A DNA stretch of 64,000 nucleotides, taken from assembly GCA_965207945.1 (NCBI GenBank), contig OZ242303.1:1280935-1344934 (forward strand), given 5' to 3'. Source of the stretch: Gammaproteobacteria bacterium (GTDB taxonomy: Bacteria; Pseudomonadota; Gammaproteobacteria; CBDBNL01; JAAOII01). The translations under genes were made by a program, and so were the position numbers. Under the pieces are notes generated by a model, which was given only the letters and a program-made list of their open reading frames with translations, made no database searches and was not told where the DNA came from. Positions 22,579 through 58,080 of this stretch are shown here, in pieces; positions within the stretch are counted from its first letter, which is position 1, and each line of letters starts with the position of its first letter.

Positions 22579-22612
22579 ATATAGTTAATAATTACAGTTT
22601 AGTTTATTAAAA

Positions 22613-25600: not shown

Positions 25601-25618
25601 TAAATGTAATATATCCAT
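22613..25618 (-). CDS. res: type III restriction enzyme Res-like subunit (SF2 helicase + C-terminal PD-(D/E)xK nuclease)
   Basis: Helicase motif I WMATGSGKTLVIV, motif II ILLDEAHKG, motif VI-like QSVGRGVRI. C-terminal YILFIDPKG (D..D/ExK-like). It starts 1 nt after the mod stop. Confidence 0.7.
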   Translation of the reverse strand: MDILHLEEIVNNIENDTLPAEWQFNDIKNFSQSKQLFDFQQDALKNAIKALYKFYENDDEASYRDENELQQIRKKYFFELYEALNIPRLESLDYELEPERKEIFKHLLDYDQEFPVEDGKISFEYFINRMNFWMATGSGKTLVIVKLISMLRDLMNRGEIPRKDILFLSHREDLLTQFKNHVEEYNSHHPSSKIVLKNLREYDNIKRNNQISFSKNEINIFYYRSDLITDTQKKNKTDFRNYDNNGEWYILLDEAHKGKKEESKGQVLYSILSRNGFLFNFSATFTEDHDYVTCAFNFNLSKFIEEGYGKNICLFDEEVAGFRKLTDFSPQEKQKTVLKTLVLATYISQYSKKIKRKHKDLYHKPLLLTLVNSVSSKTSDLGLFFAELHKIANNKIRTGLFMEVKKELLTEFSDSVSYKYEGGDFKFNNKALQNIKYDDVLYEIFNSKAAGNFEILTIPGNNKEAILQVKKSHKPFALVKIGDISKWIKNVTKNYEINEKIEHKSVFEKLNEDDSDISILMGSRAFYEGWDSNRPNIILFINIGVGPDAKKFVLQSVGRGVRIEPVKGKRKRINSLCSGGELDEDMRRKYNDIKDYVAPLETLFVFGTKPKNINEIMKVLAKEKREHAIGDLFKENREGKLLLIPTYKETEGAVSGRTNKQQFIISEKDFKMSNKLFKYLGEKIILMKYDVEPKFIEEVKNTLNNKQGLGRFNFNEGKSINNSDLLFGRIFNYFKIKNEDVDVINELKNEIVHFKRIQYKGDSGVERLKESIIQVRDCVTPSEDELNATFKSGDRDAYNELLARSSHNKKGFMYDDKSIGIHHIKNHYYIPLIVPEEKKIDYFIHAINVDSEVEFINKLIKYLKDEKNIFASYDWWKFSKLDEHLDQIYIPYYNPKGNTMAKFKPDFIFWLQKGDEYTILFIDPKGPEYISGERKIDGFIDVFEEENGASKEFYYKDASRSKFKVKVKLLLFHPQSTATSTKKYQKYWLDSLENLGNKLLI

Positions 25619-25619
25619 A

Positions 25620-28010
25620 TCATTCCCACCAGATTAGTGGTTTAATTTCTTTGTAATCTATTTCTTGGGTATTTATTTTTGTACCATCTTCAAATTCAAC
25701 TTCATTAGCAGTAATTTTTCTAATATTTTTACCTTTCAGATTGGAAAGAGTTTCAGCAATATCAATATCCGGATATAAAGCACTTAGATCTACTTTAACT
25801 TTATTATTTTTATAGTCAATTGTTATCGCCTCTGTCATCTTCTCATCCTTCATAAAAACATATTCTTGATATGGACTTGCGCCAACTTGTAAATCTAAAA
25901 CATCACTATCCGCATATTTACATTTGCTTAATGTATCCTCATATTGTTCTAGTTCGTAGTATTTAAAAAATCCACCACCATTCCAATTAACTTCTTTAGA
26001 TATACCACAAGGTTCATTCCTTCCAATACCTGCCAATACTTGTTTCATTCTAAATAAAATATCTGATTCAAAATAGTTACCCATTTCTACCCCTACCCAT
26101 CTTCTTTGTAATTTATGAGCGGAAGCAATTGTAGTTCCTGATCCCATAAAAAAATCAAGGACTAAATCATTAGGTTTTGTAGTTAAAGAAATTATTCTCT
26201 TAAGTAATTGTTCAGGTTTTTGGGTAAGTTCTGATCCATGTGGAGTATATTCTTTAACATTTCTTTTAATCTTATTAGAATGTAGTTCCTCATATTCACT
26301 GGCATTCCATGTATCTTCAATATTATATGCGCCATCTTTGGTCTTAAGTCCTATTTTATAAACTTTACCTTTATCATCTTTTATAGTTACCTTAACGTTT
26401 GTAATTTTTTGTTTATCCACACCCCATTTATTATAAATGCTTTCTAATTCATTATTAATGGTATCCTTTCTAAATGAGCTATATTTAATTTTTGATTCTT
26501 TTTTCTTAAAGAAGTGTTCCGATCGACTATTTTTAGTGAAAATAAAAATAGTATCATGATTTCTGACAAAAGCATCAACTTGAGTTTTATATCCTGACAC
26601 CCACCCTATTCTCCAAATTATTTCATTGATAAAGTTTTTCTTAGAAAATATATTAGATAATAATATCCTTCCTAAATGTTGAGCGTTCCAATCTAAATGT
26701 AAAAAAATACTACCGCTCTGATTAATAAATTCTTTAGATAATCCTAGTCTATTATCCATAAGAGTTAGCCAAGTGCTATCCTGAAACCTATCAATATACT
26801 CAAAATCATTCCCAGTATTGAAGGGAGGGTCGATGTAAACAACTTGTACCTTTTGTTTAAACTTAGGCAATATAGTATTAAGTGCTTGATAATTTTCGCT
26901 CTTAATTAACCAACCATCTAGTTGATTATCTAAGTCATCGAATAAAGAAAGTATTTTAAATTTTAAATCTGGAAAATACTTAGTATCTATAGGTAGATGA
27001 GCATATTCACTATTATCTATATCTTTTGCGTTAAATTCTTCTTCAACTATACCCATTTCCTGCCATTCTTTTAATTGTTTATTAAAGTTAGGGTGCTTAA
27101 TTATTTTTTGGACTAGTTTCTTGTCAGTAATTCTATCCAGAGTGATTACATAGTTACTCTTACGGACAAACTTGGGTTTATTCCAAATCTTACCTAATTC
27201 GTTTTCAAATTGAGAAATAAAATCTATAATTTTATAAGTAATTATTTTTAATATCCTTAATTGCTCTATTCTTTCTGGAGTCCATTCATTATCCTCTTGC
27301 CAAAAGTACTGATAACTCCAAAGCTTAAATTGCTCCATAAGAAATTCCTTGGCATTCTTATTAATAAAATAATCAACTTTAGTTTGTTTTTCGAAAAGAT
27401 GAAATCCGCGTTCTAAATCTTCTGCTTTAACTTGTAATCCTGCTTCCTTAATTGATTTTAATATTGCATCTATGTCTGTCTTTTGTCCTTTTTTAGAATA
27501 GCTAACCTCTAAATTAACCAGTCTATCTTTTATATTCTTAAATATATATACAACCGAATTTTTTTCATTAGCTTTTTTGTGTCCCATATTACTGACATCA
27601 AAAAATAATTTATAACCACCTGATTCGTTAGGGTTAATTTCAATACTTCTAAAGATACTATCCGTCTTAACATAATAAAGCATATTAGTCTTCCAAAATA
27701 AAGATACATCTTGCTCCTCTGTATAAACTCTCTCGTATATATTATTATGGAAAGGGGTTGAATTAAAATAGATGGAACCATTCTCACTGAAATAGCGCTT
27801 GAAAAATGAATAAAGTTTATTAAAAATATCCTCTCTAAATTTAGGATTTTTACGTAACTGCACGTCAATATCTTTGTCAAGAATTTTCTTAATTTGAGAA
27901 TAATATCCATGCTTAATCTTCATCAAATTAACAAACCCTCCTTTGCCTTCAATCTTTGCACCAGCAAAAATATCTTCTAAAATTTGGTAAAACTTTTCTT
28001 CCTTGTTCAT
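25620..28010 (-). CDS. mod: DNA methyltransferase (beta-class N6A/N4C, type III Mod-like), paralog 1
   Basis: Motif IV YIDPPFNTGNDFEY precedes motif I LVLDFFMGSGTTIASAHKL (beta-class order). About 340-aa N-terminal and about 165-aa C-terminal extra domains are shared with paralog 2. Confidence 0.75.
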   Translation of the reverse strand: MNKEEKFYQILEDIFAGAKIEGKGGFVNLMKIKHGYYSQIKKILDKDIDVQLRKNPKFREDIFNKLYSFFKRYFSENGSIYFNSTPFHNNIYERVYTEEQDVSLFWKTNMLYYVKTDSIFRSIEINPNESGGYKLFFDVSNMGHKKANEKNSVVYIFKNIKDRLVNLEVSYSKKGQKTDIDAILKSIKEAGLQVKAEDLERGFHLFEKQTKVDYFINKNAKEFLMEQFKLWSYQYFWQEDNEWTPERIEQLRILKIITYKIIDFISQFENELGKIWNKPKFVRKSNYVITLDRITDKKLVQKIIKHPNFNKQLKEWQEMGIVEEEFNAKDIDNSEYAHLPIDTKYFPDLKFKILSLFDDLDNQLDGWLIKSENYQALNTILPKFKQKVQVVYIDPPFNTGNDFEYIDRFQDSTWLTLMDNRLGLSKEFINQSGSIFLHLDWNAQHLGRILLSNIFSKKNFINEIIWRIGWVSGYKTQVDAFVRNHDTIFIFTKNSRSEHFFKKKESKIKYSSFRKDTINNELESIYNKWGVDKQKITNVKVTIKDDKGKVYKIGLKTKDGAYNIEDTWNASEYEELHSNKIKRNVKEYTPHGSELTQKPEQLLKRIISLTTKPNDLVLDFFMGSGTTIASAHKLQRRWVGVEMGNYFESDILFRMKQVLAGIGRNEPCGISKEVNWNGGGFFKYYELEQYEDTLSKCKYADSDVLDLQVGASPYQEYVFMKDEKMTEAITIDYKNNKVKVDLSALYPDIDIAETLSNLKGKNIRKITANEVEFEDGTKINTQEIDYKEIKPLIWWE

Positions 28011-28122
28011 GTGTAAGATTTATAGATAATTAATGGTATTATCATACCATTAAATAAAACTTTCTTTCAGCAAAATTAACCTATAACACAATAGATATGA
28101 TATTACACAAAAATGTATCATA

Positions 28123-30411
28123 TCATTCCCACCAGATTAGTGGTTTAATTTCTTTGTAATCTATTTCTTGGGTATTTATTTTTGTACCATCTTCAAATTC
28201 AACTTCATTAGCAGTAATTTTTCTAATATTTTTACCTTTCAGATTGGAAAGAGTTTCAGCAATATCAATATCCGGATATAAAGCACTTAGATCTACTTTA
28301 ACTTTATTATTTTTATAGTCAATTGTTATCGCCTTTGTCATCTTCTCATCCTTCATAAAAACATATTCTTGATATGGGCTAGCACCAACCTGTAAATCTA
28401 AAACATCGCTATCTGCATACTTGCATTTGCTTAAGGTATCTTCATATTGCTCTAGTTCATAGTATTTAAAAAATCCGCCACCATTCCAATTAACTTCTTT
28501 AGATATACCACAAGGTTCATTCTTTCCAACGCCTGCCAATATCTGCTTCATTCTATTAAGAATTAGAGGATCAAAACTTACTCCCATCTCCACACCAACC
28601 CATTTTCTGTTAAGCTTGTGAGCGGCGGCTATAGTAGTCCCCGCCCCTAAGAAAAAGTCAGCAACTATATCATTCTCGTTGCTTGATGATTCTATAATTC
28701 TTCTAAGCAGGTTTTCAGGTTTTTGTGTCAAATAGCCAGTTCTTTCTTTGGATTGACTTGCAGTTCCTAAAGAAGGTATTTCTGTCCACCAATCATGCAA
28801 AGTCCTACCTTTATATTTATCCCAGTAAACTCTTTTTTCTTTATCCCATTGCCAATATCTATCTCCATTCTCATCAACTTTATTAAAAGATTTCTCATTT
28901 TCTTCTCTCCCTTTATATATAGGATTAAAAATATATTGTTCATCTTTACTATAGAATATAATATTATCGTGTTTTCTGCCCCACATTCCCTTTGCACCTG
29001 TTCCCGCATAACACCAAACTATGTCATTCCTAAAATTATCTTTTCCAAATACTTCATCCATTATAATTCTTCCGTAATAGTGAGCATTATGATCTAAATG
29101 TAGATAAAAATTTCCTGTTTCTTTCAATAGCTTATGAGCCAATGAAATGCGATCAAACATAATTGATAACCAAGTACTATCTCTAAATTTGTCAATATAT
29201 TCAAAATCATGTCCAGTATTAAAAGGTGGATCCATATAGATGGTTTGAATCTTTCCCGTAAACTTAGGTAATATAGAATTAAGCGCCTGATAATTTTCAC
29301 TCTTAATTAGCCATCCATCTAATTGATTATCTAAGTCATTAAATAAAGAAAGTATTTCAAACTTTAAATCTAAAAAATGCTTAGTATCTATTGGTAGGTG
29401 AGCGTATTTACTATTATCTATATATTCCTCATTAAATTTTCCATCAAATATACTAAGTTCTTTCCATTCTTTTAATTGCTTATTAAAATTAGGGTGATTA
29501 ACTATTTTTTTAACTAGTTTTTTATCTGTGATTTTATCCAGAGTTATTACATAGTTACTCTTGCGGACAAACTTGGGTTTATTCCAAATCTTACCTAATT
29601 CATTTTCAAATTGAGAAATAAAATCTATTATTTTATAAGTAATTATTTTCAGTAACCTTAGCTGCTCAATCCTATCTGGAGTCCATTCATTATCTTCTTG
29701 CCAAAAATACTGATAGCTCCAGAGCTTAAATTGCTCCATAAGAAATTCTTTGGCATTCTTATTAATAAAATAATCAACTTTAGTTTGTTTTTCAAAGAGA
29801 TTAAAGCCGTGTTCTAAATCATCTACTTTAGCTTGTAATCCTTCTTTTTTAATTGACTTAAGTATTCCGTTGGTGTCTGTTTTTTTACCATTTTTAGAAT
29901 AACTAACCTCTAAATTAACCAATCCATCTTTTATATTCTTAAATATATATATAACTGATTTCTTTTCATTGATTTTCTTGTGTTCCATATTACTGACATC
30001 AAAAAATAATTTCCAATTATCTGATTCGTTAGGATCAATTTCAATGCTTCTAAAGATACTATCTGTCTTAACATAATAAAGTATATTGGTTTTCCAAAAT
30101 AAAGAGACATCTTGTTCTTCCGTATAAACCTTCTCATATATATTATTATGAAAAGGAGTTGAATTAAAATAGATAGAACCATTCTCACTAAAGTAGCGAC
30201 TAAAAAACGAATAAAGCTTATTAAAAATTTCTTCTCTAAATTTAGGATGATTACATAACTGTACATCAATATCTTTTTCAAGAATTTTCTTAATTTGAGA
30301 ATAATATCCATGCTTAATCTTCATTAAATTAACAAACCCTCCTTTGCCTTCAATCTTTGCTCCAGCAAAAATATCTTCTAAAATTTGGTAAAACTTTTCT
30401 TCCTTGTTCAT
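28123..30411 (-). CDS. mod: DNA methyltransferase (beta-class N6A/N4C, type III Mod-like), paralog 2
   Basis: Motif IV YMDPPFNTGHDFEY and motif I IVADFFLGAGTTIAAAHKL. The N-terminal about 390 aa are about 85-90% identical to paralog 1 and the C-terminal about 150 aa about 99% identical. The central catalytic/TRD core is divergent. Confidence 0.75.
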   Translation of the reverse strand: MNKEEKFYQILEDIFAGAKIEGKGGFVNLMKIKHGYYSQIKKILEKDIDVQLCNHPKFREEIFNKLYSFFSRYFSENGSIYFNSTPFHNNIYEKVYTEEQDVSLFWKTNILYYVKTDSIFRSIEIDPNESDNWKLFFDVSNMEHKKINEKKSVIYIFKNIKDGLVNLEVSYSKNGKKTDTNGILKSIKKEGLQAKVDDLEHGFNLFEKQTKVDYFINKNAKEFLMEQFKLWSYQYFWQEDNEWTPDRIEQLRLLKIITYKIIDFISQFENELGKIWNKPKFVRKSNYVITLDKITDKKLVKKIVNHPNFNKQLKEWKELSIFDGKFNEEYIDNSKYAHLPIDTKHFLDLKFEILSLFNDLDNQLDGWLIKSENYQALNSILPKFTGKIQTIYMDPPFNTGHDFEYIDKFRDSTWLSIMFDRISLAHKLLKETGNFYLHLDHNAHYYGRIIMDEVFGKDNFRNDIVWCYAGTGAKGMWGRKHDNIIFYSKDEQYIFNPIYKGREENEKSFNKVDENGDRYWQWDKEKRVYWDKYKGRTLHDWWTEIPSLGTASQSKERTGYLTQKPENLLRRIIESSSNENDIVADFFLGAGTTIAAAHKLNRKWVGVEMGVSFDPLILNRMKQILAGVGKNEPCGISKEVNWNGGGFFKYYELEQYEDTLSKCKYADSDVLDLQVGASPYQEYVFMKDEKMTKAITIDYKNNKVKVDLSALYPDIDIAETLSNLKGKNIRKITANEVEFEDGTKINTQEIDYKEIKPLIWWE

Positions 30412-30601: not shown

Positions 30602-31240
30602 ATGCCAAATGATTGTAAAAAAACTATTGATGATCTTAATCAAATTATTAAGACTGATCCAAATAATGCATATGCTTACGATGATCGCGGCCATACTAAA
30701 TTTAAATTACAAGATTATCAAGGAGCCATTGATGATCTTAATCAAGCCATTAATATTGAACCAAATAATGCAAAATTTTACAGTAATCGTGGCGTCATTA
30801 AACTTACAATTAAAGATTATAAAGGAGCTATCAATGATTTTACTGAATCTATTAAAATTGATCCAAATGAAACCCGTTATTACAATAATCGTGGCAACGC
30901 TAAACTTGAAATTAAAGATTACAAAGGGGCTATCAAAGATTATCAAATAGCACTTAAAATTAACCCAAATAATGCAAATGCTTACAATGATCGCGGTATC
31001 GCCAAACGTGAATTAAAAGACTATAACGGGGCTATCAATGATTTTACTCAGGCTATTGAAATTGAACCGAATGATGCGAATGCTTACAATAATCGTGGTA
31101 ATATTAAATATAAATTAAAAGACTATAACGGGGCTATCAATGATTATCAAATAGCATTAAATTTAAGTGATAATAAATATTTAACTGGAAGAATAACTAA
31201 ATCCCTTAAGCAAGTTCAGAAAACATTAAAAGATTCGTAG
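30602..31240 (+). CDS. orphan TPR-repeat protein (6 TPRs; same subfamily as the FRG-TPR genes; possibly an N-terminally truncated remnant)
   Basis: Starts inside a TPR helix (MPNDCKKTIDDLNQIIKTDPNNAYAYDDRG). The repeats (AYNNRGNIKYKLKDYNGAINDY) match those at 35.6-36.3 kb, 37.4-37.9 kb and 9.3-11.0 kb. Confidence 0.55.
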   Translation: MPNDCKKTIDDLNQIIKTDPNNAYAYDDRGHTKFKLQDYQGAIDDLNQAINIEPNNAKFYSNRGVIKLTIKDYKGAINDFTESIKIDPNETRYYNNRGNAKLEIKDYKGAIKDYQIALKINPNNANAYNDRGIAKRELKDYNGAINDFTQAIEIEPNDANAYNNRGNIKYKLKDYNGAINDYQIALNLSDNKYLTGRITKSLKQVQKTLKDS

Positions 31241-31384: not shown

Positions 31385-32815
31385 TCATGCCACTAATTCT
31401 TCTATTTGCAAAACACGAGATTTTAAGGTATCTATAAAAACATCACACTGTTCTTTCATAAGCTGATTAAAATTTCCAGATTCATTATCTTTTGGCACTT
31501 TTAGAAACATCACATGAAAATGAATATCACTACCATGTTGTCTAATAACATCAGAAATTAATTCCAAAGATTGCTCCACATTAAAGTGCGCGTCCCATTC
31601 GTCTTCAGGCATTGGGTAGATAAACCCACATCCGCCTATTGGTCGTTCATTAGCATATTGACCTATATAGGTATGTAATTGGAAAAGGTCTTCTCGCTTT
31701 ACGCCTTTATTGGTATTGAAATTTTTATACTTAACATCAAATACATAAAGTCCCCCATTACTTTCAAACACAATATCTGGTATTAACTTACGAACCCCTT
31801 TATTAGAGTATCCTGCCGTTGGTATTGGATGTTCTTTTCCGGATACTTCTCGTAATATTATGCTATTTCTTATCAGAAGTTTTCTAATAAAATATTCAAA
31901 TAGCATTGACACATCAAATAAGAAAGCGCTATCATCTTTTATAGAACCAAAATTAATTCCATGTTGAGTTATGATCCTCTTTGACAGATCTATCAAAATA
32001 TTATAGTCGTTGTAAAAAGGATTAGTAAAATGTGGGGTTTCCATAATTTCCTTATAACTTCTTTTTATTCCTTGATTTGCTATTACAAAAGAATTGTAGA
32101 TGCCTCTTGTCTGCTCACAAAAAGAATAGCTCTTGATTAACTCATAAGCTTTAATAAAAAGGGAAGTTGCCGGACTACTGTAACTATGTTCTCGGTATGA
32201 GCAAAGATATTTACCTGATGTTTTATTGAGAAAGTAATCAACTGGGTCAATGCTGCCCCTAACCTTTGACGTCATTTCGGTCTTAGTTACATAAGTTTTG
32301 GGTATACCCAGACGGTATGCTCGCATAAATTTAATATTCCATAGGTATGCCAATAGCCAGTCATGCCCTTTCTTATTTCCCGCCCCACCAATATTTTCTA
32401 CTTCACGGAAGCCATCTGTATCTGCAATTATGTACTGTAAGAATGAATCACCGAAACGGGAACTAATATTCAATCCATAATCGCCCTTCTTTACAAAACC
32501 AACAACATTGCCAGTCTTTAGTGTGAAGTTATCTTTATTGCTACCAGTTATGTTAATAAACTCATCATTAGTATTATGCTTATACTCTTCAGAATTGAAT
32601 AGAAAATCAGTATGTCCGTTAGTATCATTAAATGCACGCTGCATATCGGATGATATAGATTGGAGGAATAGAAATGCTGGTTCATCTATTTGTCCGTTAC
32701 TTTCTAAATTTGCATGGTAAGAGTTTCTGTTCCATTTATTGACCAGCATTCCTTCCTCGGATTGATAACTTTGGTTATCACGAAGAGTTATACTTTTATG
32801 ATTTTGATTTTCCAA
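31385..32815 (-). CDS. mcrC: McrC-like type IV restriction nuclease subunit
   Basis: Immediately downstream of mcrB. C-terminal PD-(D/E)xK: LIPDIVFESNGGLYVFDVKYK. Confidence 0.7.
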   Translation of the reverse strand: MENQNHKSITLRDNQSYQSEEGMLVNKWNRNSYHANLESNGQIDEPAFLFLQSISSDMQRAFNDTNGHTDFLFNSEEYKHNTNDEFINITGSNKDNFTLKTGNVVGFVKKGDYGLNISSRFGDSFLQYIIADTDGFREVENIGGAGNKKGHDWLLAYLWNIKFMRAYRLGIPKTYVTKTEMTSKVRGSIDPVDYFLNKTSGKYLCSYREHSYSSPATSLFIKAYELIKSYSFCEQTRGIYNSFVIANQGIKRSYKEIMETPHFTNPFYNDYNILIDLSKRIITQHGINFGSIKDDSAFLFDVSMLFEYFIRKLLIRNSIILREVSGKEHPIPTAGYSNKGVRKLIPDIVFESNGGLYVFDVKYKNFNTNKGVKREDLFQLHTYIGQYANERPIGGCGFIYPMPEDEWDAHFNVEQSLELISDVIRQHGSDIHFHVMFLKVPKDNESGNFNQLMKEQCDVFIDTLKSRVLQIEELVA

Positions 32816-32820
32816 AGCGT

Positions 32821-34554
32821 CTATTTATTACTTTCCATTCCAAACACTTTCCTAAATTGTTGGATGAGTTCATTCTCTTTACCACCTGTACCACGAAGAT
32901 ACTCATGTAATAAAGGATAGATGCAATCTACCCATATTTTATTTCTAACCTCATCAAGAGTTAAATTATTTGGATACTTCATATTCATCAGATATGCATG
33001 TCCTATTTGATAGTCAGAACCAAGCAGCTCCGTATTTGTAATTTCTTTATTAAGAAACTCAAGATTTTCTGCTAATCCAACCCAATCTTGTTTTTTCTTT
33101 GCCAGATCCTGCTTTAGAATATCAATATTAGGCACAACTTCTTCCCAATGGAATCTTCTGCGCAGAGCGAAATCAAAACTTTCAATACTGCGGTCAATAG
33201 TATTCATAGTACCAATTAGACGAATATTAAATGGAATAAAGAATTGGTATCCCAACTCATTGTTAAACATACCTGTTTCTTTATCATTAAGGGTTGAATA
33301 TTGGGTTTTGATAACACCCTTTACACCCCGATATTCCAGACAATACATTAACTCTCCAAGAACTCGTGAAAGTTCTGCCCTATTAATTTCATCTATTATG
33401 AAGTAAAAAGGAGGGATGGCATCTATAAGTAATATAGAAGAATCTCCTATATCAAAAATATATTTCCAATGATTTTCTTTTTCTGTTAACCTACTTTTGC
33501 TATTCTCAATGTCTTTGATTGTAAGTGAACTGAAATTTTGGTTTTCACATATTTTGTGATTATAAATGTCAAGTTCCCATTTACTAGCTTTTATACAGAA
33601 ATCCTTGAATACCCCGTTTTGTAACCTAAGTTGAGTCGCTTCATTTTTATCTGGCACAGGCCGCAAACCTTCCATAAAATCTTCATAACTAAACGAAGGA
33701 TGAAACTGAACAAATTCATGCTGCTCTGCATACATATAGTAACTTGTTGGCGCAAATTTCTTTTTCCATTCATTAAAGTGTGATTCGGCCTGTTTCTTAG
33801 CTTCGTATGTCTTACCAGTTCCAGGAGGACCATATTTAATCACTTGATTTTTAATGGCGAATATATCTTTCATATTTTCATTTTGGGTTGTCGTATCGTT
33901 ATAAGGAGCTACTATATTTTTTTCAGGGTTTTCTATATGTTCATTTAAGCGCCAAACAAACATACTTAAATAAAATTCATCTGTCTTTTCATTTTCTAAT
34001 TCATTCTGAAGTTTTTCTCTAATTTCTTTCATTAGAAATTGATTTCTTGCGAACCATTCTCGGGATCTGTTATTACGACCTGTATTATAAGGATATTCAG
34101 ATATCATTTTTTCCTTCATTAACCATTTAAATACTGCATCAAATTTTTTAACACTAACTGTAGTAGATACCCCAAGGGTACTTGCTGCAGCTATCCTATT
34201 AATCAATAAATGATTCTGTTTACCTTTCCAATTTTTATAAAGTTCATGATAAGTATTCTCTGTTGGATTTTTGATAAGAGACTCAAGGGCAGACATAAAA
34301 TTATCATCCTTAATAAATGAGTTAAATCTCTTAGGTAGTAAACCCGATTGTTTGCAACTAGCAATTCCGTTATCTCTAGTTTTAATTAATTTATCTAAAA
34401 AATCTTTATCCTGCTTCCATGATTCATCTTTATTAATAGTGTAATGAACATGATTAAAAAAATTTTTGTAATTGTTGTACCAAATATTAAATCCTTTGTT
34501 ATCCTTGTCAACAAGACTTTCATAATAATGTTTTAATTTGTTTTCCATAATCAT
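32821..34554 (-). CDS. mcrB: McrB-like AAA+ GTPase with an unusual approx. 215-aa N-terminal (putative DNA-reader) domain
   Basis: Walker A VIKYGPPGTGKTY and the McrB hallmark FYFIIDEINRAELSRVLGELMYCLEYRG. The N-terminal domain is homologous to the ORF at 38073-38822. Confidence 0.8.
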   Translation of the reverse strand: MIMENKLKHYYESLVDKDNKGFNIWYNNYKNFFNHVHYTINKDESWKQDKDFLDKLIKTRDNGIASCKQSGLLPKRFNSFIKDDNFMSALESLIKNPTENTYHELYKNWKGKQNHLLINRIAAASTLGVSTTVSVKKFDAVFKWLMKEKMISEYPYNTGRNNRSREWFARNQFLMKEIREKLQNELENEKTDEFYLSMFVWRLNEHIENPEKNIVAPYNDTTTQNENMKDIFAIKNQVIKYGPPGTGKTYEAKKQAESHFNEWKKKFAPTSYYMYAEQHEFVQFHPSFSYEDFMEGLRPVPDKNEATQLRLQNGVFKDFCIKASKWELDIYNHKICENQNFSSLTIKDIENSKSRLTEKENHWKYIFDIGDSSILLIDAIPPFYFIIDEINRAELSRVLGELMYCLEYRGVKGVIKTQYSTLNDKETGMFNNELGYQFFIPFNIRLIGTMNTIDRSIESFDFALRRRFHWEEVVPNIDILKQDLAKKKQDWVGLAENLEFLNKEITNTELLGSDYQIGHAYLMNMKYPNNLTLDEVRNKIWVDCIYPLLHEYLRGTGGKENELIQQFRKVFGMESNK

Positions 34555-34693
34555 TTATACAACATATCTAACATGATGTCAAGTTATGTAATTCCTTTTT
34601 AGTTACTCCAGTAAAATAATGCAATATTAAATAAAGAGTAAATCAAGTTCACACATACTATATTACTTGTACATAGAATTAGACAGATTAAGA

Positions 34694-34699
34694 TATAAT
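34694..34699 (+). promoter_or_regulatory. putative -10 hexamer (TATAAT) 7-8 nt upstream of the leader-ORF ATG
   Basis: gatataat is conserved in both FRG-TPR upstream regions (34692-34699 and 36444-36451) with the same spacing to the uORF ATG. This suggests a leaderless or near-leaderless transcript. Confidence 0.3.
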
Positions 34700-34706
34700 A
34701 ACAAAA

Positions 34707-34766
34707 ATGAATTATTCTACCAAAATATATAAAAAGGTTCTGCCAGCAACCACCCTACTTCCTTGA
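34707..34766 (+). CDS. 19-codon upstream leader ORF (MNYSTKIYKKVLPATTLLP) whose TGA overlaps the TTG start of FRG-TPR 1
   Basis: ATG 34707, stop TGA 34764-34766, main ORF TTG at 34763 (TTGA overlap). The paralogous copy is at 36458-36517. Confidence 0.35.
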   Translation: MNYSTKIYKKVLPATTLLP

Positions 34767-36418
34767 GTTATATTCAAGATACTGGAAGTAATGCACCAGT
34801 AGTTAATTCCGTTTCAGAGTTTCTTGCATGCATTAATGATATTATAAAATATAACAATGACCAGGGAAGTAAATTTTTGTTTAGAGGTCAAGAGAACGAA
34901 GAGTGGGAGATGGAAACATCTGCTTATAGGCGTCTAAAAAGAGAATCCAACGATAATCAAGTATCAGAAGGAGAGGAATTGTATTACAATCTTGGATTAA
35001 TACAACAATTTAGACATGCAGATTTCCATAGCAAGTACTCATCAGAAATAATGCAGCAGGACTTAGGTATTTTAGCTCAACTACAACATATGGGAGCTGC
35101 AACCTCATTAATTGATTTCACTGATAACGCAACAACTGCTTTATGGTTTGCTTGTAAAAAAAGTATAAACTCAGATAGTAATCATAATAATGGCAAGGTA
35201 TTTATTTTATTTGCAGGTGGCGAACATAATTTTGAAGAGATTGATAGTTTAGAACAAATAAAAAATTCTAGAGTAAGATTTCCTAAACAATTAGAATTTG
35301 CTAAAGAAAATAATATATTAAACAATGAAAAGTTAAACTATTGGAAACCAGCGCATCTTAATAATCGCATTACTGCTCAGCAATCTTATTTTTTAATAGG
35401 CAAAAGAGAACCACCAAAAATGCAAGAAATAGTTATAGCAGGAGCTTCAAAAATTGATATGTTAGAAGAGCTATCATTAGTACATGGAATTGAGCGAACG
35501 ACATTATTTCCAGATTTAGTTGGTTTTGCGCAGGCAAATTCTGTAGATTCAGCTTACGGCAAAGAAGAAAAACTGTTAAGAAAGAGAAATATTATTCGCC
35601 ATCACGATGAAATTATTGAACAAAGCCCTGAAGATCTCGGAGCTTATAGTAATCGAAGCATTGCTAAGTACAATTTGGGGGATTACGAAGGGGCTATTGA
35701 TGATTTTACCCAAGCTATTAATATTGACCCAAAGAATGCAAATGCTTACAATAATCGTGGTTACATTAAATATCAAATAGAACGTTACAAAGATGCTACT
35801 GATGATTTCAATGAAGCTATTAAGATTGACCCAAGCACTGCATTATTTTATAATAATCGCGGTAATCTTAAATGCACGTTAAAAAAATATCAACTTGCTG
35901 TTAATGATTACAATGAAGCTATTAAAATTGAATCAAATAATGCATTATTTTATAACGGTCGCGGACATGCTAAGCGTGGATTAAAAGATTATAAAGAAGC
36001 TATTAATGATTTTACTAAAGCTATTAATATTGACCCGAATGATGTAAATTCTTACAACGAACTCGGAAACACTAAACTTAAATTAAAAGATTATAAAGAA
36101 GCTATTAATGATTTTACTAAAGCTATTGAAATTGATCCAAAGAATGCAAATCTTTACTATAATCGTGGTATGACTGAATATGAATCCAAAGATTATAAAG
36201 AAGCTATTAATGATTTTACTAAAGCTATTGAAATTGATCCAAAGAATGCAAATGCTTACCATAGCTCTGGTAAAGCTAAACTTGAGTTAAATGATTATAA
36301 AGAAGCTATTAATGATTATGAAACAGCACTGAAGCATAGTATAGACAAAGATTTAACTGAGGATATAACTCTAGACCTTGAGGATGCCCAGGACACTTTT
36401 AGAGAACGTACAAGGTAA
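34763..36418 (+). CDS. FRG-domain protein fused to C-terminal TPR repeats (paralog 1)
   Basis: KFLFRGQENEEW and LGILAQLQHMGAATSLIDFTDNATTALWFA match FRG-domain (PF08867) consensus motifs (FRGQ; QHyGlPTrLLDWT). The C-terminus has about 8 TPRs. There is no in-frame ATG before the FRG motif, so it starts at TTG 34763. Confidence 0.7.
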   Translation: MSYIQDTGSNAPVVNSVSEFLACINDIIKYNNDQGSKFLFRGQENEEWEMETSAYRRLKRESNDNQVSEGEELYYNLGLIQQFRHADFHSKYSSEIMQQDLGILAQLQHMGAATSLIDFTDNATTALWFACKKSINSDSNHNNGKVFILFAGGEHNFEEIDSLEQIKNSRVRFPKQLEFAKENNILNNEKLNYWKPAHLNNRITAQQSYFLIGKREPPKMQEIVIAGASKIDMLEELSLVHGIERTTLFPDLVGFAQANSVDSAYGKEEKLLRKRNIIRHHDEIIEQSPEDLGAYSNRSIAKYNLGDYEGAIDDFTQAINIDPKNANAYNNRGYIKYQIERYKDATDDFNEAIKIDPSTALFYNNRGNLKCTLKKYQLAVNDYNEAIKIESNNALFYNGRGHAKRGLKDYKEAINDFTKAINIDPNDVNSYNELGNTKLKLKDYKEAINDFTKAIEIDPKNANLYYNRGMTEYESKDYKEAINDFTKAIEIDPKNANAYHSSGKAKLELNDYKEAINDYETALKHSIDKDLTEDITLDLEDAQDTFRERTR

Positions 36419-36445
36419 CTCTTCTAAAAACAATAAATAGTAAGA

Positions 36446-36451
36446 TATAAT
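36446..36451 (+). promoter_or_regulatory. putative -10 hexamer (TATAAT) upstream of the second leader ORF
   Basis: Same conserved gatataat context and spacing as copy 1. Confidence 0.3.
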
Positions 36452-36457
36452 AATAAA

Positions 36458-36517
36458 ATGAATTCTTCTACTAAAACATATAAAAAGGTTCTTCCTCCAA
36501 CCACTCTACTTCTTTGA
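36458..36517 (+). CDS. 19-codon upstream leader ORF (MNSSTKTYKKVLPPTTLLL) whose TGA overlaps the TTG start of FRG-TPR 2
   Basis: ATG 36458, TGA 36515-36517, main TTG 36514. It is 15/19 aa identical to copy 1. Confidence 0.35.
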   Translation: MNSSTKTYKKVLPPTTLLL

Positions 36518-37986
36518 GTAATAATAAGAACAATGGGTCCGTTGAGAATGTTAAAGATTTTCTTGAACACATCAACAAAATTGTAAAGCCAGAAACTCAA
36601 AAGGCAAGCAAAGTTTTATTTAGAGGGCAAGAGAGTGCAGAGTGGCCAATAGAAACATCTGCTCATAGACGTTTAAGAGGAAAATCAAATGAAAAAATAA
36701 TATCAGAAGAACAAGAACTATATTACAATATTAGATTAATAGAACAGTTTAAACATGGGGATTTCCATAGTCCTAATTCATCAGAAATGATGAAAAATGA
36801 CTTAGGTATTCTAGCCCAATTACAACATCAGGGAGCTGCTACTTCATTAATTGATTTCTCGGATAATCCTTTAGTCGCTTTATGGTTTGCTTGCCAAGAA
36901 AGCCCAAAATCGGTTAGTGATCATAATGGACAGGTATTCATTCTATCTACAAGTAGTAATAAATATAATTTTGAAGAGATAGATAGTATTGAACAAATAG
37001 AGTATTATAAAGTAAGTATTCCTGATCAATTACACAATCCTAAGATAGATGGTATATTGAACGACCCTACGTTCTTCTATTGGAAACCAGCACATCTTAA
37101 TAACCGTATTACTGCCCAGCAATCATATTTTTTGATAGGCAAAAGAAAACTCCCAGAAATGGAAAAAATATCTATAGAAGAAAATTCAAAATTTAATATC
37201 CTAAAAGAGTTATTATCAGTATATGGGATTAATGAAGTAACGCTATACCCCGATTTAGTCGGTTTTGCGCAAGCAAATTCTTCACGTTCATCTTATGACC
37301 AAGAGACACAAAATGAAACACAAAAATTTATATATAAAAAAAGTATTTTTCGCCTAAATAAAAAGATCAAAGAAAACTCTGAAGATTATGATTCTTATAG
37401 CAAACGAGGGGTTGCCAAATATAAATTGGATGATTATAAAGGTGCTATTGATGATTGGAGTGAAGTTATCAAGGTTAATCCAAATAATGCAACTATTTAC
37501 TATAATTGTGGGGTCGCTAAGGGTAAATTAAAAGATTATAAAAGAGCTATTGATAATTATGATAAAGCCATTAAGTATAATCCAGATTATGCAGACGCTT
37601 ACAATAATCGTGGTGATGCAAAAGATCAATTAAAAGATAATAAAGGCGCTATGGATGATTACAATAAAGCTATTAAGATTGATCCAAACCATGCAGATGC
37701 TTACAATAATCGTGGGGCAGCTAAATATGAATTAAAAGATAATAAAGGTGCTATGGATGATTACAATAAAGCTATTGAGATTAATCCAAATTATGCAACT
37801 GCTTACAATAATCGTGGCGATGCTAAAATTAAATTAGAAGATTATAAAGGCGCTATTGATGATTATCAAACAGTTTTAAAACATAGTAAGGATACAAACT
37901 TAACTGAGATTGCAAATAAAAATATTAAGCTAGGCAAGGCAAAATTAAAGGAAGTACAGAATAAATTTTCTAAAGATAAGAAGTAG
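36514..37986 (+). CDS. FRG-domain protein fused to C-terminal TPR repeats (paralog 2)
   Basis: KVLFRGQESAEWPIETSAHRR and LGILAQLQHQGAATSLIDFSDNPLVALWFA, then about 6 TPRs. Starts at TTG. Confidence 0.7.
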   Translation: MSNNKNNGSVENVKDFLEHINKIVKPETQKASKVLFRGQESAEWPIETSAHRRLRGKSNEKIISEEQELYYNIRLIEQFKHGDFHSPNSSEMMKNDLGILAQLQHQGAATSLIDFSDNPLVALWFACQESPKSVSDHNGQVFILSTSSNKYNFEEIDSIEQIEYYKVSIPDQLHNPKIDGILNDPTFFYWKPAHLNNRITAQQSYFLIGKRKLPEMEKISIEENSKFNILKELLSVYGINEVTLYPDLVGFAQANSSRSSYDQETQNETQKFIYKKSIFRLNKKIKENSEDYDSYSKRGVAKYKLDDYKGAIDDWSEVIKVNPNNATIYYNCGVAKGKLKDYKRAIDNYDKAIKYNPDYADAYNNRGDAKDQLKDNKGAMDDYNKAIKIDPNHADAYNNRGAAKYELKDNKGAMDDYNKAIEINPNYATAYNNRGDAKIKLEDYKGAIDDYQTVLKHSKDTNLTEIANKNIKLGKAKLKEVQNKFSKDKK

Positions 37987-38072
37987 TTAAATTATGTCTT
38001 TTAGTGGTGGTGGTTTAGCTAAAATTTAAAGGGGTGAGTTATTGTAGAGGATTGTATATTATCTTATAGTTC

Positions 38073-38822
38073 TTATTTTTTAAGATGGAAGGATTCACTG
38101 TATTTGTATAGATACCAAACAAAGTGACTTAAAAATATTTCATCTGTCGTACCACTTTTTAGTTCGTCTTGGAATTGTTGTTTAATTTCTTTCATTAGAA
38201 ATAGGTTTTTCCTAAACCATTGTTGGGACTCAGTGTAATGACTATCGTCAGGATGATATTGCTCAATCATTTTTTCTCTAATTAGCCAATCAAATAGAGG
38301 GTTAAATTTTTGTATATCCACTGTTGTGGATACTTCAGTTGTGCTGGCTGCCGCTGTGCGGAGAATTCTTATTAGATTATTAGATCCTTTTTCTTCTTTC
38401 CAAATTTTTTCAAAACGCTGAAGAGTAATATCTGTTGGATTTAAGATTAGTTCTGTAAGGGCAGACATAAAATTATCACTTCCGATAAATGAATGGAATT
38501 GTTCCTTTGATAACATTGACTGCCCGCATGAAGCAATACCATTATTTTTTTTGTAAAGTAACTCCTCTAAAAATTCTTCATTTTCTCCCCATGAGTGATT
38601 CCCAGTTTTAATGAGATTTCTTATTCTTTTGAGTTTACCAAATAAATATTTATGTTGGCCGTACCAATATTTAACGCTTTCTATGCCTTCTATCTCTTCC
38701 CTTTCCATGCGTTGGTTAACGAGGCGTTCGTAAAGTAATTTTAATGTAGTTGTCATGTTTATATTATAGTGTATTTTAATGATATGAGTATAGCGATGGC
38801 TTGTTGTAAGTTCAAAGTCCAT
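38073..38822 (-). CDS. free-standing homolog of the McrB N-terminal domain (no AAA+ module); likely start at internal Met (38756)
   Basis: Aligns with McrB residues about 60-215. NNGIASCGQSMLSKEQFHSFIGSDNFMSALTELILNPTD..RILRTAAASTTEVSTTVDIQKFNPLFDWLIREKMI..FLMKEIKQQFQDELKSGTTDEIFLSHFVW is similar to DNGIASCKQSGLLPKRFNSFIKDDNFMSALESLIKNPTE..RIAAASTLGVSTTVSVKKFDAVFKWLMKEKMI..FLMKEIREKLQNELENEKTDEFYLSMFVW. Confidence 0.65.
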   Translation of the reverse strand: MDFELTTSHRYTHIIKIHYNINMTTTLKLLYERLVNQRMEREEIEGIESVKYWYGQHKYLFGKLKRIRNLIKTGNHSWGENEEFLEELLYKKNNGIASCGQSMLSKEQFHSFIGSDNFMSALTELILNPTDITLQRFEKIWKEEKGSNNLIRILRTAAASTTEVSTTVDIQKFNPLFDWLIREKMIEQYHPDDSHYTESQQWFRKNLFLMKEIKQQFQDELKSGTTDEIFLSHFVWYLYKYSESFHLKK

Positions 38823-38835
38823 TTATTCATATAAC

Positions 38836-38960
38836 GCGAGTATCCCGATGGTGCATTGCAAGAGTTAGATATTTTGCGGGCGGAGCATGGCTCCGCCCCT
38901 ACAGACCATCATTCCAAGGATTTAGACATCATAGGTGTTTACCATTGCAAGAATTTATAC
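38836..38960. mobile_element. REP/MITE-like palindromic element, copy 1 (island right boundary)
   Basis: Core ttttgcgggcggagcatggctccgcccctacagacc (38872-38907) with an imperfect GCGGGCGGAGC/GCTCCGCCC palindrome. Flanked by a cattgcaaga direct repeat (38854 and 38947). Confidence 0.6.
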
Positions 38961-39022: not shown

Positions 39023-40255
39023 TTATTCAGCGGTGTGGTGTTCGTCGCAGGCGGCTTGGATGGCGGTGAGGCGGGCTTCGCGGACGGCGGCAGGTATGTC
39101 TATATCTGGTGTATTCTGGATGGCAGCTCGGATGTCTACTGCTGTGGCTGCTTTGGCTATTTGGGCGAATAGGTCGCCGCGGGTGTAAGCTGCGGTTTCA
39201 AATCCTAATCTGCCGCGGGAGTCGGCTTTGCACAGGAGGAGGAAGTCGGCAAAGCGGTGGGGGCGTCGCCATAAGTCAAAGGCGTCAAATACTTTTAGCA
39301 TTGTGTCGGGGTTCATTTCTTTGCAGCGGTGGGTGTGGGTGTGGTAGCGGCAGCACAGGACTGAGAAGTCCGTAATCTCGCGGGGGGCGGTTATGCGCTC
39401 ACATAACTTCTGCACTAATGGCACTCCTCTTTCTTCGTGTCCTCTATGTGAAGGTAAGATGTCTTTGGGGGTGGTGCCTTTGCCGAGGTCGTGGGTTAAG
39501 GCGGCAAATCTGATGGAGACCTTGTTGGATAATAAAGCTGCTTGTTTGAGGACTGCCAGAGTGTGAATGCCGCAATCTATCTCTGGATGATACTTAGGTG
39601 GTTGGGGGATGCCGAATAGTTTTTCCACTTCGGGGTACCAGTAGTTCAGCCCTCCTACTTCGTGCAGCACTTCAAAGAATATATGCGGTGCGGTGCTTTC
39701 TAATGCTTTGCTGCTTTCAACCCAGATTCTTTCGGCGCTCATGGTGTCCAGTTCGCCCACCATTTGTTTGAGCATCTCAGTGGTTTCATCGGCTATGGTG
39801 AAGCCCATTGTATGGAACTTGGCGGCAAATCTTGCCACGCGTAGGACGCGCAGTGGGTCTTCTACAAATGCCTCTGATGTGTGGCGGATAATCTTATTTT
39901 CTAAATCTTGCTGACCTTTATAAAAGTCAATGATATCTCCGTTGGCATCTTGCGCCATGGCGTTGATGGTGATGTCGCGTCTTTTGAGGTCGTCTTCCAG
40001 GGTGACGTCTGCGGCGCTATAGAAGGTGAAGCCGTGGTATCCCCTGCCCTTTTTGCGTTCGGTGCGGGCTAAGGCGTATTCTTCTTTGGTGGTGGGATGG
40101 AGGAATACGGGGAAGTCCTTGCCTACTGGTTTGAAGCCGGCGGCGAGCATTTGTTCGGGGGTGGCGCCAACGGTTACCCAGTCCCTGTCATGGGTTGGGA
40201 TGTTGAGGAGTTTGTCGCGCACGGCGCCGCCAACAATGTAGTGTTTAATTGCCAT
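39023..40255 (-). CDS. cca: CCA-adding tRNA nucleotidyltransferase with HD domain
   Basis: N-terminal IVGGAVRDKLL.. pol-beta NTase motif and C-terminal HD (HTLAV...THDLGK). Hairpin ccgcacataagtgcggtg is downstream (38987-39004). Confidence 0.9.
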   Translation of the reverse strand: MAIKHYIVGGAVRDKLLNIPTHDRDWVTVGATPEQMLAAGFKPVGKDFPVFLHPTTKEEYALARTERKKGRGYHGFTFYSAADVTLEDDLKRRDITINAMAQDANGDIIDFYKGQQDLENKIIRHTSEAFVEDPLRVLRVARFAAKFHTMGFTIADETTEMLKQMVGELDTMSAERIWVESSKALESTAPHIFFEVLHEVGGLNYWYPEVEKLFGIPQPPKYHPEIDCGIHTLAVLKQAALLSNKVSIRFAALTHDLGKGTTPKDILPSHRGHEERGVPLVQKLCERITAPREITDFSVLCCRYHTHTHRCKEMNPDTMLKVFDAFDLWRRPHRFADFLLLCKADSRGRLGFETAAYTRGDLFAQIAKAATAVDIRAAIQNTPDIDIPAAVREARLTAIQAACDEHHTAE

Positions 40256-45318: not shown

Positions 45319-46398
45319 TTATTTTTTCAAACAGCTAATTAATGAATCGGCGATGCTGTGTAATAAATCAAAATAACCGCTGCGGCTAAGCGCAACATCC
45401 TCTCCTAATACATCAATCACTCCCTGGCGGACACCTGTCCCCGCCACCAATTTATTCAGCGAACGTTTACTCAACTGTGGCTCGCTAAAAACACAAACTA
45501 CATTACCAGCGCGAATCTTTTTATTAATCTCCGCTAAATGTCTGGCGGAGTATCCCGTTTGTGGTGATGGGGTTACATAGCCCTTGTAAGAAAGGTCAAA
45601 CTCATTAACAAAGTATCCAAAAGCGTCATGCATAGTAATAAATGATTTATCACTAACCGCGGATAACTTGCGGCGCAGGAGTACGTTTTGTTTGTCCAGT
45701 TCTTTAAGGAACTTGGCTAAATTCTTCTTGTATACAGGCGCTGATGCAGGATTGACCTTTTGCATGTAAGCGCTGATTGCCCGCGCCGTCCGTCCAGCGA
45801 GTTTTGGCGAAAGCCATATATGCGCATCAAAGGAATGGTCGTGGACTTCTTCATTTGTTTTATGCTCGTCTTCATGTTCTGCATGCTCATCATGGTCTAC
45901 ATGGTCGTCATGTGCTTCATGCTCATCGTGGTCGTCATGGTCGTCATGTGCTTCATGCTCATCGTGGTCGTCGTGGTCTGCATGGTCGTCGTGTGCTTCA
46001 TGCTCATCATGGTCGTCGTGGTCATCTTCTTTTGCTTCCTTGCTTCCTTCTTTGAGTCCCAGTTCTTTGATAAGTTCCAGAGTATGCTTAACATTGCGCA
46101 GTGGCTTGACTAAATTACTTTCCAAATCCTTGCCTGCCCAGACGACCATATTTGCTTGTTTCATCCTCACTATGTCCGATGGTTTTAAGCGATGAGTATG
46201 GGGTGAGCTTGTAGGGGGAATAATTAGTTCAAGTTTATCCTCATCAGTAATGAGGGACGCCATTATTAATTGTAGCGGTTTGATGCTCACAACATAATTG
46301 CCGTGCGGCGCGTCGTCTGCCATAAGTTTCAATGGAGTTAATAGCAGAGAAGACGATATAAATAAAAAGTAAAATATAGGTTTGTTCATAGTTATCAT
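45319..46398 (-). CDS. znuA: zinc ABC transporter periplasmic binding protein with His/Asp-rich loop
   Basis: Cluster-9 SBP fold residues, and a (DHDDHDEHEAHDDH)n loop encoded by a near-perfect tandem DNA repeat at about 45880-46020. Confidence 0.85.
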   Translation of the reverse strand: MITMNKPIFYFLFISSSLLLTPLKLMADDAPHGNYVVSIKPLQLIMASLITDEDKLELIIPPTSSPHTHRLKPSDIVRMKQANMVVWAGKDLESNLVKPLRNVKHTLELIKELGLKEGSKEAKEDDHDDHDEHEAHDDHADHDDHDEHEAHDDHDDHDEHEAHDDHVDHDEHAEHEDEHKTNEEVHDHSFDAHIWLSPKLAGRTARAISAYMQKVNPASAPVYKKNLAKFLKELDKQNVLLRRKLSAVSDKSFITMHDAFGYFVNEFDLSYKGYVTPSPQTGYSARHLAEINKKIRAGNVVCVFSEPQLSKRSLNKLVAGTGVRQGVIDVLGEDVALSRSGYFDLLHSIADSLISCLKK

Positions 46399-58002: not shown

Positions 58003-58080
58003 GGTCTGTAGGGGCGGAGCCGCGCTCCGCCCGCAAAATGCCTAATACTTGCGATAAATCATAACCATGCTCGCGATGAA
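58003..58080. mobile_element. REP/MITE-like element, copy 3 (inverted orientation)
   Basis: ggtctgtaggggcggagccgcgctccgcccgcaaaatg, followed by ccatgctcgcgatga. This is the reverse complement of the tcatcgcgagcatgg flank of copy 2. Confidence 0.6.

Follow-up and report, generated by a model that had tools for sequence, protein, structure and literature searches.

A free-standing paralog of the McrB N-terminal domain beside FRG-TPR genes in a gammaproteobacterial island

Introduction

In Escherichia coli, mcrB also yields a short product without the N-terminal domain, McrB-S, through an internal start, and McrB-S has been proposed as a modulator of McrBC. In McrBC type IV restriction systems, McrB proteins combine an N-terminal specificity domain with a GTP-specific AAA+ motor. 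These N-terminal domains decide the targets of McrBC. Among the characterized ones are the SRA/DUF3578-type domain of E. coli and the YTH domain of T. gammatolerans (bioRxiv 10.64898/2026.08.31.748284). In the three-gene McrBC-like systems LlaI and BsuMI, DNA binding is the task of a separate protein, R1, which attaches to the AAA+ motor R2; R1 is an alpha/beta ERCC4-like two-domain protein, and its operon also encodes R2, which has no N-terminal DNA-binding domain of its own (bioRxiv 10.64898/2026.08.31.748284). The FRG domain, found in candidate defense genes, has been placed in the ADP-ribosyltransferase (ART) superfamily, with a proposed role as an antiviral effector that may be an NADase (PMC9503650). 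In PADLOC, such genes are covered by PDC-S15, a single-gene candidate for which no partner is described. Here we analyzed a stretch of 64,000 nucleotides (nt) from a Gammaproteobacteria bacterium (assembly GCA_965207945.1, contig OZ242303.1, positions 1,280,935 to 1,344,934), called the window below, in which a gene on the minus strand at 38073..38756 encodes an McrB-type N-terminal domain and nothing else. The gene was found to be intact, conserved and selected, with its own start and -10 box, and to be descended from mcrB.

From end to end, the stand-alone protein is homologous to the N-terminal domain of a genuine McrB from the same island, but its gene has no linker, no AAA+ GTPase and no adjacent mcrC, and carries its own promoter-like site. 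Unlike the McrB N-terminal domains of E. coli and T. gammatolerans, the window domain is predicted to be all-alpha and has no Pfam family. The recognition subunits of LlaI and BsuMI appear to be the closest functional likeness, in that a recognition module of an McrBC-type machine would likewise act in trans as a separate polypeptide. However, the stand-alone gene does not seem to be a member of that group, because its product has a predicted all-alpha fold rather than an ERCC4-like alpha/beta fold, because it lies outside the mcrBC operon, with two opposite-strand genes between, and not in an R1-R2-R3 operon, and because the window McrB keeps its own N-terminal domain. A further difference from LlaI and BsuMI is that related loci hold the stand-alone gene without an McrB AAA+ within 10 kb. 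E. coli McrB-S is also a partial McrB polypeptide beside the full-length protein, but the two are mirror images: McrB-S is the AAA+ part and comes from the same gene, whereas the window has the N-terminal domain alone, from a separate, diverged paralogous gene. The FRG candidate defense genes of PDC-S15 share a hotspot with the stand-alone gene, which alternates with FRG-TPR genes in every related locus, but the stand-alone protein is itself neither FRG nor TPR.

Results

The stand-alone gene was first called mechanically as an intact open reading frame (ORF) of 249 aa at 38073..38822 on the minus strand. BLASTP of this ORF against the window McrB (32821..34554, minus strand, 577 aa) aligned ORF residues 23-244 with McrB residues 3-209, with 94/222 identities (42%) and an expect value (E) of 2e-50. 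A preliminary description had given the match as McrB residues about 60-215 at roughly 45% identity; the homology held in this pairwise comparison, and the range and the identity had to be corrected to the values above. The match takes in the entire McrB N-terminal domain. As had been described, the ORF ends at the domain boundary: the 227-aa protein encoded by 38073..38756, which is identical to database protein P0001 and has its stop codon at 38073-38075, stops where the McrB linker begins. Several stand-alone copies terminate in (P)F-x-L-K/I-K-K, a counterpart of the motif NPF(S/T)LKKQ at the end of the domain in fused McrBs. The 227-aa protein had no AAA_5 or McrB match in Pfam or NCBIfam and, because it has no AAA+ domain, is not an McrB. 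Nor is its gene placed as an mcrB would be: the next gene downstream is a convergent FRG-TPR gene, and mcrC (31385..32815) follows the full-length mcrB instead. The location at an island edge was likewise borne out. The low-GC island measures about 18 kb (~20.7-38.85 kb, G+C 0.25-0.35), and the gene is the last on its right-hand side, beside cca (39023..40255, minus strand; NCBIfam CCA enzyme, 2.7e-180). The core genome begins there, with G+C of about 0.29-0.33 at the island edge and about 0.5 from cca onward.

The start codon was examined by aligning the cca-to-gene spacer of the window with those of four sister loci (L002, L003, L004 and L005). The arrangement CTATAATAT-N4/5-ATG was conserved in 5/5 loci, and it was kept even though the stand-alone coding sequences (CDSs) of L002-L005 are only 54-66% identical to the window protein. 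The ATG at 38822 falls within a stretch unique to the window, and in the other four loci the CDS begins at the position that corresponds to 38756. Because CTATAATAT-N4/5-ATG is kept in all five loci and the ATG at 38822 is in window-only sequence, translation almost certainly starts from the ATG at 38756 (M23 of the mechanical ORF), which gives the protein of 227 aa; the in-frame upstream extension of 22 codons (38757..38822, minus strand) is probably untranslated. A -10-like TATAAT at 38763..38768 (minus strand), 6 nt before the ATG, was conserved in the five loci, and there is no space for a Shine-Dalgarno sequence between it and the ATG. The closeness of the box to the ATG and the lack of room for a Shine-Dalgarno sequence suggest that the mRNA is leaderless or has a very short leader.

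Next to the gene, traces of a lost AAA+ part were searched for with the AAA+ sequences of four McrBs as queries, using tblastn at a word size of 2 and a cutoff of E 10. None was found at E<5 beside the stand-alone gene or beside its homologs in L001-L005. The 86-nt gap at 37987..38072, between the convergent stops of the second FRG-TPR gene and the stand-alone gene, contained a hairpin at ~37984-38021 (fold z-score -2.5) and no AAA+ remnant, in agreement with the earlier remark that no AAA+ segment follows (37.99-38.07 kb). The same search detected a 47-aa AAA+ remnant (E 2e-8) right behind P0019, an unrelated stand-alone homolog (L006-L008), so the test was able to reveal decay. The stand-alone ORF was intact in the window and in 9/10 other copies whose DNA was inspected. 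The exception was P0012, the cca-proximal copy of L003 (10001-10676; 188 aa), which goes on in another frame (tblastn, 10515-10676); this frame change is a frameshift or an indel error, on a long-read contig of 3x coverage.

The 16 closest database homologs (41-100% identity) were all 188-243 aa long, most of them complete and with a common end point; none of them was fused to another domain (0 of 16), and their alignment contained 24 invariant columns. The four sister loci lie in genomes of 1.8-2.1 Mb or on long contigs, and their flanking genes are close to those of the window (cca 85-95% and mdh 95-98% identical). They share the order rpiA ... YHS, YHS, Na/Ca exchanger, mdh, cca, followed by a stand-alone copy; each sister locus has two or three copies, the further ones lying downstream of the cca-proximal one. 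Ten stand-alone copies were compared pairwise by the method of Nei and Gojobori. The ratio of nonsynonymous to synonymous divergence (dN/dS) was 0.16-0.51, with dS saturated for most pairs, and the least saturated pair gave 0.27 at a dS of 0.37. The window gene, compared with its homologs, gave ratios of 0.2-0.4. These ratios point to purifying selection on the stand-alone family. With no adjacent degenerate AAA+, an intact ORF and dN/dS of 0.16-0.51, the stand-alone gene does not have the marks of an mcrB pseudogene fragment.

Divergence was much higher at the slot than around it. The cca-proximal copies showed dS of 0.6-1.25 and dN of 0.17-0.35, and the flanking cca and mdh genes of the same genomes showed dS of 0.09-0.38 and dN of 0.01-0.10. 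A conserved slot whose occupant is far more diverged than its flanks is what would be expected of a conflict gene or of allele replacement among paralogs.

The relation of the family to the intact mcrB of the window was then analyzed. The N-terminal domain of this McrB (33928..34548, minus strand) was recognized by BLASTP and tblastn, with no Pfam match on this part. It precedes an intact linker and AAA+ GTPase (32821..33927, minus strand) with the Walker A motif GPPGTGKT and an MNTIDRS loop (Pfam AAA_5; NCBIfam McrB, 3.7e-32), and the mcrC on the same strand encodes 476 aa (Pfam McrBC PF10117, 8.1e-25). A promoter-like site, TTGACA-17-TATAAA, at 34554..34582 (minus strand) ends 5 nt before the ATG at 34548. 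The start of mcrB is likely this ATG (M3), because the -10 box and the first ATG of the ORF overlap; the database version, P0166, has 575 aa, in agreement with M3.

The 150 nt upstream of the window mcrB aligned with the regions upstream of the second-position stand-alone genes of L002, L003 and L004. The aligned regions include a near-consensus TTGACA-17-TATAAA with the ATG 5-6 nt after it, and mcrB and the stand-alone genes are alike in having a -10 hexamer that ends 5-6 nt before the ATG and no Shine-Dalgarno sequence, which suggests that the transcripts of both are leaderless. In a neighbor-joining tree of 97 domains, computed without support values, the stand-alone copies P0001-P0017 formed one clade, and its sister was the N-terminal domain of the window McrB. 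Because of the common clade with the window McrB domain and the homologous promoters, the stand-alone family descends from the 5' module of an mcrB, that is, the promoter and the N-terminal domain up to the start of the linker. Since fused forms are the widespread state, the simplest history would be that this module became a separate gene in the lineage and was then duplicated. The window mcrBC sits in the slot that a stand-alone copy holds in the sister loci, with a convergent TPR gene (30602..31240) next to it, as an FRG-TPR gene is there.

The DNA of mcrB and that of the stand-alone genes were 71-75% identical over patches of about 100 nt, with no long identical tracts. Because dS between copies is at least 0.4 and the identity to mcrB is just 71-75% in short patches, the separation is an old, lineage-wide event and not a local deletion at the edge of the window island. 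A silent cassette, in which a stand-alone copy would serve as a recombination donor for the 5' end of mcrB, was also considered and was ruled out by the same short patches of 71-75% identity and the lack of long identical tracts.

The structure of the domain was predicted by AlphaFold2 with the family alignment. The model was all-alpha with 13 helices (predicted local distance difference test 87, predicted template modeling score 0.85). No family could be assigned to the domain in Pfam (E up to 10), NCBIfam, PADLOC or a PDB sequence profile search, and no significant fold match came from Foldseek searches of PDB and BFVD, in which 8-oxoguanine glycosylases ranked first (E ~0.6, TM 0.33), a lead at most. 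In the literature searched, neither the domain nor an FRG partner for it is described.

The distribution of the domain was examined with a profile that had the stand-alone protein as its first sequence (profile A1). This search gave 160 clusters among 1.84 billion representatives, and 165 proteins, including the 16 closest database homologs, were classified. The domain was fused ahead of a McrB-type AAA+ in 66/165 proteins and formed a full-length stand-alone protein (205-255 aa) in 43/165; fragments made up 34/165 and other architectures 22/165. The other fusions included domain-NOV_C (a nuclease-type domain), Mrr_N-domain, Mrr_N x2-domain-AAA_5-McrC and EVE-domain-AAA_5. At the loci from JGI metagenomes and IMG/VR, the gene was fused in 34/34 cases, and mcrC was next to it wherever the contig was long enough. 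A word-index search with the full McrB gave more than 7,000 proteins; the best 120 were mostly of 547 aa and 50-53% identical over 95-100% of their length. Among these best 120, from organisms such as Proteus mirabilis, Shewanella, Desulfosarcina and Prosthecochloris, the proteins were named just 'McrB family protein' or 'AAA family ATPase'. Judged by its fusion partners and its company, the domain is a predicted recognition-type module of modification-dependent or restriction-type enzymes.

Across the 97 domain sequences R133 and W180 were invariant, N184 was conserved in 99% and N72 in 97%, and G78, F96, F151, F212 and W214 in at least 90%. The window stand-alone protein retains all of these residues. 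It keeps 12/13 conserved positions (N72-G73, G78, S80, N132-R133, T139, S143, W180, N184, D205, F212 and W214) and matches the family profile at full length.

Stand-alone copies without an AAA+ remnant were also found in unrelated organisms, beside a MunI-type restriction-modification system (L047), beside a Mod-like methyltransferase (L011) and in ordinary neighborhoods (L009 and L012). L011 (NCBI assembly GCA_008849205.1) carries a tandem pair of stand-alone copies at 50-553 and 1083-1670, with a DUF2188 gene between them; the convergent gene after the pair is 35% identical to the window Mod methyltransferase. This locus appears to be a second, independent case in which free-standing copies were amplified. 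A phage-encoded decoy was looked for by tblastn in 50,697 phage records and was rejected, with 0 matches; three matches in IMG/VR were full-length mcrBC.

Two FRG-TPR genes lie between mcrB and the stand-alone gene in the window. The first (34763..36418, plus strand, 551 aa; Pfam FRG 6.2e-17 plus TPRs; PADLOC PDC-S15 3.2e-32) is divergent from mcrB, and the second (36514..37986, plus strand, 490 aa; Pfam FRG 1.5e-18 plus TPRs; PADLOC PDC-S15 6.9e-36) is convergent with the stand-alone gene. The two are tandem paralogs (repeat families D2, D3 and D6). In the window and L002-L005, all genes between stand-alone copies were FRG and/or TPR genes on the opposite strand, and each of them was convergent with the preceding stand-alone copy and divergent from the next.

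Discussion

The best explanation for these data, to which we assign a probability of roughly 0.45, is that the gene encodes a functional, independently transcribed stand-alone recognition module that would act in trans, probably with FRG-TPR rather than with McrBC. It would represent a known class of domain in an undescribed free-standing and amplified form, with a new, putative association to FRG-TPR. After the mcrB 5' module, promoter and N-terminal domain together, had become its own gene, the family would have been duplicated and diversified within the hypervariable defense hotspot by cca. The protein most likely keeps binding the ligand that the domain binds in McrB, because 12 of the 13 nearly or fully invariant positions are kept; by analogy with other N-terminal domains of McrB, this ligand would be DNA or some feature of it. 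Because it is neither a motor nor a nuclease, it would have to act in trans. The likeliest partners would be the FRG-TPR proteins, which combine a predicted ART-superfamily NADase or ADP-ribosyltransferase effector with TPR arrays and are the constant neighbors in every related locus. Instead of tuning McrBC, the stand-alone protein may provide these with a subunit for recognition or sensing, or with a guarded bait; both a physical link and the direction of signaling are inferred. A role with or alongside FRG-TPR effectors, the sensor and guarded-bait variants included, is favored because of the lineage-wide alternation with FRG-TPR genes and the absence of mcrBC within 10 kb at the sister loci, and its chance falls somewhat short of even. 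A more specific form of this idea is a two-part defense cassette, amplified in the hotspot beside cca, in which a restriction recognition domain without motor and nuclease would be a sensor or a guarded decoy for phage anti-restriction proteins, and the TPR arrays would read its state and switch on the ART-type NADase or ADP-ribosyltransferase. In that full form the model is speculative, and we regard it as doubtful.

Several observations weigh against a recognition module that serves FRG-TPR. For the domain itself, N132, conserved in 86%, is leucine in the window copy and its cca-proximal subclade. The charge of the domain is not consistently basic and gives no consistent DNA-binding signature, with a median isoelectric point of about 6 in the fused forms, and no Pfam, PDB-sequence or significant fold match points to a ligand. 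The domain may also not be the primary DNA reader, because some fusions place an EVE or Mrr_N reader ahead of it. For the partnership, the FRG-TPR association is one of gene neighborhood in a single lineage; no FRG gene was found nearby at the 34 loci with fused forms or at the other stand-alone loci examined. The stand-alone and FRG-TPR genes are convergent or divergent and do not form one operon, and their copy numbers are not 1:1. FRG-TPR may also work alone, because PDC-S15 is a single-gene candidate.

A rival reading is an autonomous small DNA-binding protein unrelated to either neighbor, either a regulator of the back-to-back hotspot promoters or a self-contained reader that blocks foreign DNA; the alternation with FRG-TPR would then reflect cassette duplication only. 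Stand-alone copies free of AAA+ remnants do occur in unrelated organisms and in varied contexts (L047, L011, L009 and L012), and every copy has its own promoter-like site, back to back with FRG-TPR upstream regions. However, no helix-turn-helix or other regulator fold was recognizable in the domain by the predicted model, Foldseek or Pfam, the other contexts of the domain are restriction-type fusions and not regulators, and its rapid diversification suits a conflict interface better than a housekeeping regulator. We consider an autonomous protein unlikely.

The preliminary description had offered, as one of two possibilities, an independent reader or decoy domain that could modulate McrBC. Independence was upheld, since the gene is separate and selected, but modulation of McrBC fits poorly with sister loci that have no McrB AAA+ within 10 kb and with FRG-TPR genes as the constant neighbors. 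As a modulator or decoy, the free domain would mask the same or overlapping DNA features, for self-protection or to set a threshold, or it would dock on McrB or McrC as an extra specificity subunit. Such a role has precedents in the separate R1 subunits of LlaI and BsuMI and in E. coli McrB-S; the gene is, moreover, a paralog of the N-terminal domain of an intact McrB only 3.5 kb away in the same island, and the pocket-like invariant residues are kept. Yet the sister loci carry two or three stand-alone copies without that partner, and none of the best 120 of more than 7,000 matches is an McrB more than 53% identical to that of the window. The two window domains may not share a specificity, because they are 42% identical and show no recent gene conversion (71-75% DNA identity in patches of about 100 nt). 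In addition, the window McrB already has its own N-terminal domain, the stand-alone protein has no N-linker, and two opposite-strand genes separate it from mcrBC. On balance, modulation of McrBC is improbable.

The other possibility raised in the preliminary description was a second mcrB of which the rest was lost to the island boundary or to a repetitive extragenic palindromic (REP) element. Such a remnant, non-functional and open by chance, might also have lost its AAA+ part through insertion of the FRG-TPR genes. This reading had to be abandoned as very improbable: truncated or decayed mcrB genes do exist elsewhere (P0019, L042 and L043) and the family does derive from mcrB, but the window gene has no AAA+ trace, 16 stand-alone homologs and the same cca slot in four sister loci, more than 10 intact copies at five loci share its end point, dN/dS is about 0.3 (0.16-0.5), the start, the -10 box and the family-invariant residues are conserved, and a very recent duplication is excluded by dS of 0.4-1.

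The domain type described here heads thousands of McrBs and has no family name or structure. The stand-alone genes show that such a recognition-type domain is able to leave its enzyme, persist under selection as its own gene and be amplified beside other predicted effectors, here FRG-TPR. If the partnership is true, it would be an example of the exchange of sensor modules among defense systems and would give the first activation hypothesis for the PDC-S15/FRG candidates. Even without a partnership, the protein offers a compact construct of about 225 aa, predicted to fold well, for finding the ligand of a widespread McrB domain.

Other features of the region

Decay of the kind that the preliminary description envisaged was seen at other loci. 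At P0019 (L006, 8001-8787), a frameshifted AAA+ remnant lies immediately behind the N-terminal domain ORF. The mcrB of L042 has multiple frameshifts, and in L043 (6992-8503) one stop lies between the N-terminal domain and the AAA+ part; mcrC is intact there, and the mcrB could either be split or have become a pseudogene recently. All three plainly appear to be decaying mcrB genes.

A GC-rich palindrome of the form GGGGCGGAGC-N-GCTCCGCCC lies between cca and the stand-alone gene at 38878..38898, and a second copy is at 58012-58032; zero copies are expected by chance. Copies were also found in L002 (9758-9776 and 9897-9915) and L004 (9302-9320 and 9410-9428). The palindrome between cca and the first island gene is at the same spot in L002 and L004, and it was aligned in all five loci. 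It is a REP-like repeated element at the hotspot boundary. In L004, a 142-aa TPR ORF (9513-9941) lies between cca and the first stand-alone copy and starts with the promoter-proximal sequence and first codons of that copy, and in L005 the cca ORF continues into TPR sequence (8193-9782, 529 aa). Both look like rearrangement scars at the hotspot edge.

An 82-nt stretch at 34704-34785 is 82% identical to 36455-36536; the two lie upstream of, and overlap, the TTG starts of the two FRG-TPR genes. An 18-mer that contains GATATAAT is repeated just upstream of these stretches (34689-34706 and 36441-36458). The 82-nt stretch is likely the promoter and 5' region of FRG-TPR, and the ORF finder may have misplaced the TTG starts. 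The TPR gene beside mcrBC (30602..31240, plus strand, 212 aa; convergent with mcrBC) has TPR matches only. Its repeats belong to the 102-nt TPR family D1, which also occurs in both FRG-TPR genes, and its position is that of the FRG-TPR genes in the sister loci. It is probably an FRG-TPR gene that lost its FRG part, and it looks like one truncated upon insertion of the type III block.

Altogether the island contains genes for an AriA/OLD-like ATPase, a type III restriction subunit and two tandem type III Mod methyltransferases, the TPR-only gene, mcrC, mcrB and the two FRG-TPR genes. The type III restriction-modification block takes up the left part (20770-30411, minus strand). Its Mod paralogs at 25620-28010 and 28123-30411 are full-length and in tandem, each with a PADLOC MTase_III match of about 1e-225, and the Res-like gene (22613-25618) encodes 1001 aa. 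By this block lies a gene for a 602-aa ATPase, the first ~370 residues of which cover the whole PADLOC AriA profile (7.6e-23), with weaker OLD, GajA and PtuA matches; it could be a PARIS- or OLD-like gene. No Rfam family was found in 30-41 kb of the window. Outside the island, the minus-strand gene at 45319-46398 codes for a ZnuA-like periplasmic metal-binding protein with a long His/Asp/Glu-rich insert of repeated HDDHDEHEA units, which results in spurious ORFs on the opposite strand.

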